The notes beneath the pieces were generated by a model. That model made no database searches. It worked only from the letters and a program-made list of their open reading frames with translations, and was not told the origin of the DNA. Positions 43,760 through 45,951 of a stretch of DNA of 64,000 bases are shown here, in pieces. Numbering within the stretch: position 1 is the first letter of the stretch; every line of letters starts with the position of its first letter. Position numbers and translations under genes: made by a program. The stretch is taken from assembly GCF_988243305.1 (NCBI RefSeq), contig NZ_OZ547136.1; one strand, given 5' to 3'.

Positions 43760-43938
43760 CATTTTTTCCTGCCGGAGAAGGCATTCACGCCGCATCCGGC
43801 AACATTATCCCACGCATGGTCAGCAAACTGACATTATCTCTCCGCCCTGGCAACCGCCTGAAAATCGCTCATACTTTAATCGGTAAACAGTTCTTTTAGA
43901 TGCTGTTTTCGATACGCAATTTCAATCAAGGAGTCATT

Positions 43939-44271
43939 ATGGCTGGTTGGTTTGAACTCAGTAAGAGCAGTGATAATCAGTTCCGGTTTGTGCTAAAAGC
44001 GGGCAATGGTGAGACTATCCTCACCAGCGAGCTATATACCTCAAAAGCCTCTGCGGAAAAGGGTATCGCGTCGGTGCGTAGCAACAGCCCGCAAGAAGAA
44101 CGCTATGAGAAAAAAACGGCAAGCAACGGCAAATTCTATTTCAATCTGAAAGCCGCCAATCATCAAATTATCGGCTCCAGCCAGATGTACGCCACCGCGC
44201 AATCTCGTGAAACCGGAATTGCCTCCGTTAAAGCCAATGGCACAAGCCAGACGGTGAAAGACAATACGTAA
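43939..44271 (+). CDS. yegP: UPF0339/DUF1508 family protein
   Basis: Track ORF is 123 aa; trimmed to MAGWFELSKSSDNQFRF... (110 aa) with SD aaggag 6 nt upstream. The protein is an internal duplication (two SxxxAxxxIASVxxN halves). Confidence 0.85.
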   Translation: MAGWFELSKSSDNQFRFVLKAGNGETILTSELYTSKASAEKGIASVRSNSPQEERYEKKTASNGKFYFNLKAANHQIIGSSQMYATAQSRETGIASVKANGTSQTVKDNT

Positions 44272-44418
44272 TTACGATGCCGGGCGTGGGTTGTTGGCGT
44301 CCGGCGCTTTACCAGCTCCCCCCTACAGCGCTACAATGCCCGCCCTTAAAGTGGGGGCACTCCCCTGGCCGCTTCATCAGGTGAAGCGGATCTGACCTGT
44401 CATCAGAACGAGAGAATT

Positions 44419-45780
44419 ATGTTTAAACCGGAACTCCTTTCCCCGGCGGGAACGCTGAAAAATATGCGTTACGCTTTCGCTTATGGCGCAGATGCTGTTT
44501 ATGCGGGCCAGCCGCGTTACTCCCTGCGTGTGCGCAACAACGAATTTAACCACGAAAATCTTCAGCTCGGCATCAATGAAGCCCACGCGCTGGGGAAAAA
44601 GTTTTATGTCGTGGTCAACATTGCACCGCACAACGCCAAGCTGAAAACCTTTATCCGTGACCTGAAACCGGTGGTGGAAATGGGGCCGGATGCGCTGATT
44701 ATGTCCGATCCGGGGCTGATTATGCTGGTGCGCGAGCACTTCCCTGAAATGCCGATCCATCTCTCAGTACAGGCTAACGCCGTGAACTGGGCGACGGTGA
44801 AATTCTGGCAGCAAATGGGTCTGACCCGCGTGATCCTCTCTCGCGAACTGTCACTGGAAGAGATTGAAGAGATCCGCAATCAGGTGCCAGATATGGAGAT
44901 CGAAATCTTCGTTCACGGCGCGCTGTGCATGGCCTACTCCGGTCGCTGCCTGCTCTCTGGCTATATCAACAAGCGCGACCCGAACCAGGGCACCTGCACC
45001 AACGCCTGCCGCTGGGAGTACAACGTCCAGGAAGGGAAAGAAGATGACGTTGGCAACATCGTGCACAAGTACGAGCCGATTCCGGTGCAAAATGTTGAGC
45101 CGACGCTGGGTATCGGCGCACCAACTGACAAAGTGTTTATGATCGAAGAAGCCCAGCGTCCGGGCGAGTATATGACCGCGTTTGAAGATGAGCACGGCAC
45201 TTACATCATGAACTCGAAAGATCTGCGCGCTATCGCCCACGTTGAACGCCTGACCAAAATGGGCGTGCATTCGCTGAAAATCGAAGGCCGTACTAAATCT
45301 TTCTACTATTGCGCACGCACCGCACAGGTTTACCGTAAAGCTATCGATGACGCCGCTGCGGGCAAACCGTTCGATACCAGCCTGCTGGAAACTCTGGAAG
45401 GTCTGGCGCATCGTGGCTATACCGAAGGTTTCCTGCGTCGTCATACTCACGACGATTATCAGAACTACGAATACGGTTATTCAGTTTCTGACCGCCAGCA
45501 GTTTGTTGGTGAGTTTACCGGTGAGCGCAAGGGCGACCTCGCGGCGGTAGCGGTGAAAAATAAATTCTCCGTTGGCGACAGCCTTGAGCTGATGACGCCG
45601 CAAGGGAACATTAACTTTACCCTTGAGCAGATGGAAAACGCCAAAGGCGAAGCAATGCCGGTCGCACCGGGCGATGGTTATACTGTGTGGATCCCGGTCC
45701 CGCAGGATCTTGAGCTAAATTACGCGCTGCTGATGCGTAATTTCTCCGGGGAAACCACGCGTAACCCACACGGTAAGTGA
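44419..45780 (+). CDS. yegQ: U32-family peptidase-like protein (tRNA hydroxylation, TrhP)
   Basis: 453-aa ORF MFKPELLSPAGTLKNMRYAFAYGADAVYAGQPRYSLR... with conserved Cys cluster. Confidence 0.9.
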   Translation: MFKPELLSPAGTLKNMRYAFAYGADAVYAGQPRYSLRVRNNEFNHENLQLGINEAHALGKKFYVVVNIAPHNAKLKTFIRDLKPVVEMGPDALIMSDPGLIMLVREHFPEMPIHLSVQANAVNWATVKFWQQMGLTRVILSRELSLEEIEEIRNQVPDMEIEIFVHGALCMAYSGRCLLSGYINKRDPNQGTCTNACRWEYNVQEGKEDDVGNIVHKYEPIPVQNVEPTLGIGAPTDKVFMIEEAQRPGEYMTAFEDEHGTYIMNSKDLRAIAHVERLTKMGVHSLKIEGRTKSFYYCARTAQVYRKAIDDAAAGKPFDTSLLETLEGLAHRGYTEGFLRRHTHDDYQNYEYGYSVSDRQQFVGEFTGERKGDLAAVAVKNKFSVGDSLELMTPQGNINFTLEQMENAKGEAMPVAPGDGYTVWIPVPQDLELNYALLMRNFSGETTRNPHGK

Positions 45781-45834: not shown

Positions 45835-45864
45835 GCTGCATTTATTAAGGTTATCATCCGTTTC

Positions 45865-45951
45865 GCTGAAAAACATAACCCATAAAATGCTAGCTGTACC
45901 AGGAACCACCTCCTTAGCCTGTGTAATCTCCCTTACACGGGCTTATTTTTT
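45865..45951 (+). ncRNA. cyaR: CyaR (RyeE) Hfq-dependent sRNA
   Basis: gctgaaaaacataacccataaaatgctagctgtaccaggaaccacctccttagcctgtgtaatctcccttacacgggcttatttttt matches my recollection of CyaR, including the terminal hairpin and U-tract. Confidence 0.85.

Follow-up and report, generated by a model that had tools for sequence, protein, structure and literature searches.

The short interval that separates yegP from yegQ in Escherichia coli raises the question of what kind of element it contains. It lies in a stretch of 64,000 nucleotides (nt) of contig NZ_OZ547136.1 (assembly GCF_988243305.1), hereafter the window, which open reading frames (ORFs) together with Rfam and RefSeq matches identify as E. 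coli DNA, with the gene order baeS, baeR, yegP, yegQ and then the small RNA (sRNA) CyaR. The gene yegQ is also named trhP, the name used here, and its product, TrhP, is a tRNA-modifying enzyme. From the stop codon of yegP to the ATG of trhP at 44419 there are 147 nt (44272-44418) with a G+C content of 59.9%, versus 51.9% in the whole window, which corresponds to the 93rd percentile among all 147-nt windows; the adjacent intergenic regions have 45.8% and 43.5%. The initial annotation was therefore correct in calling this gap unusually GC-rich; it also described it as dense in hairpins, and as possibly a structured regulatory leader or an unrecognised sRNA rather than a simple terminator. The analysis presented here revealed that the gap is a composite formed by the yegP terminator, the trhP promoter and a structured trhP leader. 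Its most informative element, overlooked in that description, is an invariant hairpin that adjoins the ribosome binding site, hereafter P3, which resembles the anticodon arm of a tRNA modified by TrhP and may be a tRNA-mimic translational operator.

P3 is formed by a 5-bp stem and a 7-nt loop and spans positions -28 to -12 of trhP; it ends 3 nt before the Shine-Dalgarno (SD) sequence and 11 nt before the AUG (Table 1). When its bases are numbered as those of an anticodon arm, P3 shows several features of such an arm, i.e., C28-G42, G30-C40, a pyrimidine at position 32, U34 and G35. In a post hoc comparison with the tRNA genes of NC_000913.3, 13 of the 17 residues of P3 were identical to the anticodon arm of thrU, tRNA-Thr(UGU) (ACUGA-CUUGUAA-UCAGU); of the four residues that differ, two belong to the outer pair, which is swapped, and the other two are U33 and A37, each replaced by C. 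The best value among 17 other tRNAs was 10/17. On both strands of the 64-kb window there are 1190 positions able to form a 5-7-5 hairpin, and an identity of at least 13/17 to any of the six tRNA arms with a 5-oxyuridine derivative (xo5U) at position 34 occurs at 2 of 127,968 positions, one of them being P3 and the other one a site where the anticodon is not kept. Previously, it was reported that TrhP carries out the prephenate-dependent hydroxylation of U34 in the six tRNAs that carry 5-carboxymethoxyuridine or its methyl ester, (m)cmo5U, at this position: Ala1 (UGC), Ser1 (UGA), Thr4 (UGU), Pro3 (UGG), Leu3 (UAG) and Val1 (UAC) (PMC6599085).

The transcript to which P3 belongs is defined by a published transcription start site (TSS) of yegQ with a 5' untranslated region (5'-UTR) of 75 nt (Kim et al. 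2012, PMC3415461, supplementary file 2), which corresponds to position 44344 of the window, 7 nt downstream of the -10 hexamer TACAAT. This leader folds into three hairpins, P1, P2 and P3, with the SD unpaired, and the minimum free energy (MFE) structure equals the centroid. P2 corresponds to one of the two inverted repeats quoted in the initial annotation, ccgcuuca(u)/(g)ugaagcgg, and here the idea of a structured leader was borne out, given that the hairpin lies in transcribed, conserved sequence and its pairing covaries. In the Enterobacteriaceae alignment all 8 pairs of P2 vary on both sides with 86% of the cells paired, and its covariation score is 0.177; shuffled alignments gave 0.099, with 0/500 at the observed level, and slid controls 0.031-0.113. 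The sequences of its stem and loop drift with the pairing kept, the loop of 3-5 nt is not conserved, and the corresponding hairpin has an unrelated sequence in Pantoea, Pectobacterium, Providencia, Yersinia, Limnobaculum, Morganella, Sodalis, Proteus, Aeromonas, Tolumonas, Motilimonas and Veronia. P2 is a purely structural helix; located 1 nt 5' of P3, it may, as a matter of speculation, stack on P3 or shield the 5' end. P1 is the weakest of the three hairpins; it shows some compensatory changes (GAGG/CCUC in Salmonella and Citrobacter) and is not kept outside Enterobacteriaceae. Another pairing, GCCCGCCC/GGGGGC, was considered as an anti-structure to P1 and rejected, since the TSS lies downstream of its 5' half and this hairpin is therefore not present in the RNA. 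Folding of the whole 147-nt interval in comparison with shuffled sequences gave z values of -0.15 (+ strand) and -0.20 (- strand), a stability as expected by chance; thus, the hairpin density noted initially holds only for P2 (z -4.04) and for H1, the terminator hairpin of yegP (z -2.74).

The conservation of the leader was followed in trhP loci fetched from 80 Enterobacteriaceae species, which together with the window provide 81 leaders. In all 80 species the ~100 nt that precede trhP are conserved, including the -35 and -10 hexamers, P1, P2, P3 and the SD, whose GAGA is nearly invariant in the alignments. The 17 nt of P3 are identical in 70 of the 81 leaders, and the few others differ from it at loop positions 5 and 6 only, apart from one Shimwellia variant. 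More distant loci came from exact-protein look-ups and, serving as outgroup genomes, from chromosomes that PLSDB lists among its plasmids, a sample that leaves Vibrio proper, Shewanella and Pasteurellaceae outside. At the same place, 99 loci from Enterobacterales, Aeromonadales, Vibrionaceae and Alteromonadales carry an equivalent hairpin, which was found in seven further Enterobacterales families as well as in Aeromonas, Tolumonas, Motilimonas, Veronia and Pseudoalteromonas (Table 1). The layout that recurs in these loci consists of a -10 box ~75-80 nt upstream, a variable hairpin, 0-3 nt, the 5-7-5 hairpin, a purine-rich SD and the AUG. Over the 99 loci, U34 is present in 99, G35 in 97 and a pyrimidine at position 32 in 99, and positions 33, 36 and 37 vary freely; the triplets found at the place of the anticodon are UGU (Thr4), UGA (Ser1) and UGC (Ala1), plus UAU in two lineages. 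Between P3 and the AUG there are 11-12 nt in Enterobacteriaceae, and in other Enterobacterales this spacer reaches up to 16 nt; Aeromonas, Tolumonas, Motilimonas and Veronia have 14-17 nt, and Pseudoalteromonas has 18 nt. A covariance model trained on Enterobacteriaceae only gave a single match in the window and matched the sequence 5' of trhP in other Enterobacterales families (E 3e-12 to 0.012), Aeromonas (28.4 bits), Tolumonas (27.3 bits) and Motilimonas (20.0 bits); its best match outside a leader in 173 kb was the anticodon arm of thrU, which is not significant (10.4 bits, E 0.8).

Table 1. Features of the yegP-trhP region in window coordinates, and P3 sequences of other lineages written as stem, loop and stem.
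Feature	Position	Strand	Sequence, structure or basis
yegP coding sequence (DUF1508 protein)	43939-44271	+	ORF and RefSeq annotation of the identical K-12 locus; stop codon 44269-44271
H1, yegP terminator hairpin with GCUUU tail	44279-44310	+	9-bp stem 44279-44287/44297-44305, 9-nt loop; mapped 3' end 44309
Polymorphic joint	44306-44327		22 nt replaced by a ~0.8-kb parD/parE cassette in ~41% of complete E. coli genomes
Sigma-70 promoter of yegQ/trhP	44308-44337	+	-35 TTTACC 44308-44313, 18-nt spacer, -10 TACAAT 44332-44337; consensus scan 9/12
5' leader of the trhP mRNA, 75 nt	44344-44418	+	Published TSS; MFE and centroid both with three hairpins
P1 hairpin	44353-44366	+	GGGG(G)-CACU-CCCC; fold, z -0.27
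P2 hairpin, 8-9 bp	44369-44389	+	CCGCUUCA(U)-CAG-(G)UGAAGCGG; z -4.04, 0/200 shuffles as stable
P3 hairpin	44391-44407	+	UCUGA-CCUGUCA-UCAGA; 5-bp stem, 7-nt loop; 'U34' 44398, 'G35' 44399
Shine-Dalgarno	44410-44414	+	GAGAG; 3 nt past P3, 4 nt before AUG
yegQ = trhP coding sequence (prephenate-dependent tRNA U34 hydroxylase, peptidase U32 family)	44419-45780	+	ORF, RefSeq names, Sakai et al. 2019 (PMC6599085)
CyaR (RyeE) sRNA	45863-45948		Full-length Rfam match, 100.7 bits, directly downstream of trhP
P3 of Pantoea			UCUGA CCUGACA UCAGA
P3 of Pectobacterium			CCUGA CUUGUCA UCAGA
P3 of Providencia			GCUGA CUUGAUA UCAGA
P3 of Yersinia and Morganella			UCUGA CUUGAAC UCAGA
P3 of Limnobaculum			UCUGA CUUGUGA UCAGA
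P3 of Sodalis			ACUGA CUUGACA UCAGA
P3 of Proteus			ACUGA CUUGAAA UCAGA
P3 of Aeromonas caviae			CCUGA UUUGCAA UCAGA
P3 of Tolumonas			ACUGA CCUGUGA UCAGA
P3 of Motilimonas			CCUGA CUUGAGA UCAGA
P3 of Veronia (Vibrionaceae)			GCUGA CUUAUAC UCAGA
P3 of Pseudoalteromonas			ACCGA CUUGUAC UCGGU; loop variants UUUGUAC, CGUGUAC, CUUAUAC
P3 of Pseudoalteromonas sp. HL-AS2			ACUGG CUUGUAA CCAGU

Given that TrhP hydroxylates U34 of exactly the tRNAs with such anticodons, the most likely role of P3 is that of a tRNA-mimic translational operator, bound by TrhP or by another enzyme of the (m)cmo5U pathway, a proposal that we make tentatively. P3 is located within the region that the 30S subunit must occupy. 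No 3' end inside the trhP leader was found in the Term-seq tables, where yegQ has no entry among the 3' ends in 5'-UTRs, and a consensus scan detected no terminator-like site after 44344; therefore, control of this leader, if any, should be translational. The yegP transcript ends at H1 and its short U-tail, and the sigma-70 promoter that overlaps this tail starts the trhP mRNA at 44344, whose 75-nt leader folds into the three hairpins, P3 copying the shape and key bases of an anticodon arm. According to the proposed mechanism, when TrhP (or another anticodon-arm-binding enzyme of the pathway) is in excess over its unmodified tRNA substrates, it would bind P3 and block the 30S subunit; on the other hand, accumulating unmodified tRNAs would compete the enzyme off P3, and trhP would be translated. 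The data show the anatomy of the interval, the TSS, the 3' end, the conservation, the covariation and the likeness to a tRNA arm; the binding of a protein to P3, the identity of this protein, for which TrhP is put forward by analogy, and the repression of translation by its binding are inferred. It has been shown that CmoM, an enzyme of the same wobble pathway, contacts the anticodon arm only and that its determinants are position 34 and G35, U33 being dispensable (PMC10516636); the fixed and free positions of P3 match this pattern.

An extension of this proposal, which we consider a long shot, is that P3 is also a real substrate, i.e., that TrhP and then CmoB/CmoM modify the 'U34' of the trhP leader and that this mark sets the translation of trhP. 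If so, it would be a prephenate-, S-adenosylmethionine- and iron-sulphur (Fe-S)-dependent mark on an mRNA, an enzyme-written epitranscriptomic feedback switch that would couple the aromatic-precursor and redox status of the cell to wobble modification.

Several observations weigh against an operator that mimics the substrates of TrhP. The substrates preferred by this enzyme in E. coli are Leu3 (UAG) and Pro3 (UGG), and Thr4, Ser1 and Ala1 are also served by TrhO (PMC6599085); P3 imitates the latter three rather than the preferred ones, and the UAU triplet of two lineages is not an xo5U anticodon. In Enterobacteriaceae, the loop carries C33 and C37 in place of the U33 and the purine that are two hallmarks of real anticodon loops. 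P3 is energetically unremarkable (-3.4 kcal/mol, z -0.72) and stands out only by its conservation, and its comparison with the tRNAs was made after the sequence had been seen. Furthermore, it is the only anticodon-like element in the leader, a single mimic domain versus the two of thrS. Within Enterobacterales the stem of P3 never varies, so covariation gives no proof of structure there; in the complete set of loci, the pairs 28-42 (C-G) and 30-40 (G-C) never change, and 27-43, 29-41 and 31-39 show compensatory double changes that all come from a single genus, Pseudoalteromonas (CUGA/UCAG to CCGA/UCGG and to CUGG/CCAG), it being understood that the copies were located with patterns that require the stem and that the lack of broken inner pairs is partly by construction. 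An Erwinia metagenomic contig (1440-1500) keeps the promoter, P2 and the SD and has lost the 5' half of P3 (CGGCCUUAUGUCAGAUUGAGA), a natural deletion variant. Finally, the trhP leaders of Acinetobacter, Francisella and Neisseria have other sequences without an anticodon-like hairpin, and the same is true for the different leader of a 63%-identical trhP orthologue, the top full-length protein match.

Some of these observations would be accommodated if the hairpins were generic expression elements without a ligand, P1 and P2 protecting the 5' end from RNase E/RppH and P3 tuning ribosome access or acting in standby or processing, with a coincidental likeness to tRNA. Hairpins at the 5' end commonly stabilise bacterial mRNAs, and the unremarkable energy of P3, its C33 and C37, the UAU variants and the Erwinia leader with P2 and SD but no P3 all fit this explanation. 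Nevertheless, we consider it unlikely, given that a stabiliser would drift as P2 does, whereas in P3 the stem sequence, the 7-nt length of the loop and U34/G35 are preserved in four orders amid surroundings that change; in addition, a match of this kind to an xo5U arm is expected by chance at approximately 1 in 10^5 positions, and the downstream gene acts on exactly that tRNA position. It is distinctly unlikely, in turn, that P3 is an operator for a different binder of anticodon arms, be it TrhO, which would imply cross-talk between the O2- and the prephenate-dependent hydroxylases, CmoB/CmoM, or the threonyl-tRNA synthetase (ThrRS). UGU, UGA and UGC belong to tRNAs that are mainly served by TrhO (PMC6599085), and the conserved U34 and G35 with a free U33 match the determinants of CmoM (PMC10516636); however, CmoM requires cmo5U34, which is not expected on an mRNA, and no hairpin of the P3 kind is present upstream of trhO or cmoA in K-12. 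As for ThrRS, G35-U36 of the E. coli P3 are identity bases of this enzyme and thrS has an analogous operator, but ThrRS requires U36 and many lineages carry A36 or C36. Autogenous control is also the commoner arrangement for mimic operators, as illustrated by thrS and the ribosomal-protein operons.

The same residues could also be read as DNA, TCTGA-N7-TCAGA being a palindromic operator for a transcription factor at +48 to +64 of the trhP promoter. This perfect 5-7-5 inverted repeat is invariant in Enterobacteriaceae, and the compensatory changes mentioned above would keep a DNA palindrome as well as an RNA stem. The 7-nt centre, however, is asymmetrically conserved (C, U and G at loop positions 1, 3 and 4, and not at their mirror positions), which a dimer bound to a palindrome fails to explain, and the outermost pair is mismatched in 9 of the 21 variants. 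These facts, the location of the site far downstream of the TSS and abutting the SD, and the absence of a fitting consensus among the E. coli regulators known to us (CRP, FNR, LexA and TyrR) make such an operator improbable. The remaining option is the one raised in the initial annotation, i.e., an independent sRNA, or else a transcription attenuator or riboswitch. The dense hairpins and high G+C content, as well as a bona fide sRNA, CyaR, that is encoded directly 3' of trhP, speak in its favour; nonetheless, it is very improbable, since Rfam 15 gave no match at E <= 10 in 44272-44418, the consensus scan detected no hairpin with a subsequent U-run 3' of the TSS, including past P2 and P3, no Term-seq 3' end falls inside the leader, and the identity of MFE and centroid structures leaves no competing fold. 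The short ORFs of the interval (35 and 34 amino acids) start upstream of the mapped TSS, in its variable, unconserved part, and were rejected. CyaR was likewise discarded as a partner of the leader, the energy of the predicted duplex being no better than with shuffled sequences or random genomic windows.

The tRNA-mimic operator proposed for trhP can be compared with known systems. In the thrS operator, ThrRS binds and excludes the ribosome, and both binding and repression have been demonstrated. Domain 2 of this operator in K-12, GAUCU-UUCGUGU-GGGUC at -40 to -24, has a 7-nt loop with CGU at positions 34-36. In both leaders, the ribosome binding site is closely preceded by a hairpin whose 7-nt loop is anticodon-like, and the product of the gene binds anticodon arms of tRNAs; the anticodon-like triplet of trhP may also correspond to tRNA clients of its enzyme, as that of thrS does. 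On the other hand, thrS has two anticodon-like domains, a single-stranded linker and a dimeric synthetase, in contrast with the single domain of trhP, which is preceded by a hairpin that is not a mimic; moreover, the presumed regulator of trhP is not a synthetase but a tRNA-modifying Fe-S enzyme, and the operator function is putative. The autogenous leaders bound by S15, L1 and L20 also show mimicry of the substrate at the ribosome binding site, being kept in related orders and replaced in distant bacteria; these, however, are rRNA mimics with Rfam families and experimental support, whereas P3 is a tRNA look-alike that belongs to no Rfam family and is a putative operator. Finally, TadA edits tRNA-Arg-like hairpins in mRNAs, for instance in hokB. 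Such sites, as well as the recognition mode of CmoM, resemble the situation proposed here in that an enzyme that acts on anticodon loops can recognise a 5-7-5 hairpin by itself, provided that its loop has the right bases; the TadA-type sites differ in being modification targets within coding regions and not operators in the leader of the enzyme's own gene.

A full-text literature search on yegQ/trhP retrieved nothing that describes this leader or its regulation, and a sequence search retrieved no solved structure of TrhP or its relatives. The anticodon-arm-like hairpin and its conservation in four orders therefore appear to be unreported. If the proposal is correct, P3 would be, as far as the papers and databases searched show, the first substrate-mimic operator for a tRNA-modification enzyme rather than for a synthetase. 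This would be of interest given that tRNA-modifying enzymes are increasingly viewed as regulators of translation, and how their levels are matched to those of unmodified tRNA is largely unknown. It would also explain why ~100 nt before trhP stay fixed next to a site of frequent gene insertion (yegP, parDE and others, see below), and P3 would provide a minimal RNA ligand of 17 nt to study the recognition of U34 by a structurally uncharacterised Fe-S hydroxylase. Even if the operator interpretation is wrong, this is an unrecorded conserved leader motif that spans several orders and is worth an Rfam entry.

The other inverted repeat quoted in the initial annotation, gccgggcgu/gcguccggc, forms the 9-bp stem of H1, which starts 8 nt past the yegP stop codon and has a fold of -18.3 kcal/mol (2/200 shuffles fold as well). 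In Term-seq data, the 'primary' 3' end of yegP was mapped at NC_000913.3 2165559 (Adams et al. 2021, PMC7815308, supplementary file 1), which is window position 44309, the second U of the CUUU past H1; this 3' end does not distinguish termination from trimming back to the hairpin. A hairpin GCCGGG...CCCGGC with a variable interior, followed by (G)CUUUACC, is present 3' of yegP in E. albertii, Citrobacter, Kluyvera, Enterobacter and an enterobacterial metagenome-assembled genome, so that this GC-clamp hairpin and its U-tail were seen in six other Enterobacteriaceae species with yegP that were examined. Taken together, the mapped 3' end and the conservation of a hairpin with its tail indicate that H1 is the intrinsic terminator of yegP, despite a short U-tract; consequently, for this hairpin the preference of the initial annotation for a regulatory leader over a terminator did not stand. 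H1 resembles a typical intrinsic terminator in its GC-rich hairpin and in the position of the 3' end within the following U's, but its tail (GCUUUACC) has only 3 U, below the typical at least 5 of 8, and merges into the -35 hexamer TTTACC; the consensus terminator scan makes no call at this site. The tail in Citrobacter is GUUUUUCUUU.

Given this overlap between the H1 tail and the -35 hexamer, the terminator and the trhP promoter are interlocked. The promoter is similar to a typical sigma-70 promoter in its hexamers and its mapped TSS; the -35 TTTAC(C/T) and the -10 TACAAT are nearly invariant in the 80 Enterobacteriaceae species, and TACAAT, TAGAAT or TAAAAT is found at an equal distance in other orders. 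Terminator, promoter and TSS are ordinary elements, already present in public data sets. An antisense ORF of 127 amino acids that runs across the start of trhP has no support.

The left part of this region is variable. BLAST matches break at window position 44328 in 2241 of 5423 complete E. coli genomes, and in the sequence and annotation of NZ_AP022215 (709-1501) the inserted cassette encodes a ParD antitoxin and a RelE/ParE toxin. This parD/parE insertion removes the trhP -35 hexamer TTTACC and leaves the -10 and the entire leader intact; the window and K-12 represent the empty site. E. coli SCPM-O-B-8794 has a yegP-trhP gap of 452 nt whose right edge is similar to the parE-side junction. 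Across loci, the spacing between baeR and trhP ranges from 125 to 1833 nt, with the final ~100 nt before trhP constant. Throughout Enterobacterales this gap is a hot spot of insertion; it contains yegP in some genera only and a gene of the glutathione S-transferase type in Pectobacterium, and Limnobaculum and Morganella carry unrelated ORFs there. Just after baeR, at 43770-43810 of the window, a palindrome similar to repetitive extragenic palindromic sequences (GCCGGAGAAGGCAUUCACGCCGCAUCCGGC) gives a partial Rfam match to naRNA4 of 26.4 bits, below the gathering threshold of 59.5.

Other observations were made in the course of this work. A search upstream of trhO, cmoA and yecD in K-12 for further members of a P3 regulon gave a sole lead, CCUGAAAUCAGA, which is identical to a P3 variant and lies 142 nt upstream of yecD and hence of the gene run yecD-yecE-yecN-cmoA-cmoB; it is absent in Klebsiella and Salmonella and was rejected as a chance match. 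In PLSDB, NZ_AP026896.1, NZ_OL790812.1, CP125156.1, NZ_CP064203.1, NZ_CP119142.1 and others are entire chromosomes of several megabases under a plasmid label, a pitfall for statistics on plasmids. In Pseudoalteromonas, a longer helix is predicted to enclose the anticodon-like hairpin and to pair a GCGCUUC-like sequence with the GGAGC of the SD (about -75 to -5), and according to this model the SD may be sequestered, unlike that of E. coli. A gene for a small 4Fe-4S dicluster ferredoxin of the YfhL family is located directly 3' of trhP in Pseudoalteromonas sp. CuT4-3 (1774-2028) and in Tolumonas (1968-2465), the latter also with a glutaredoxin gene; both proteins may be redox partners of TrhP, itself an Fe-S enzyme.

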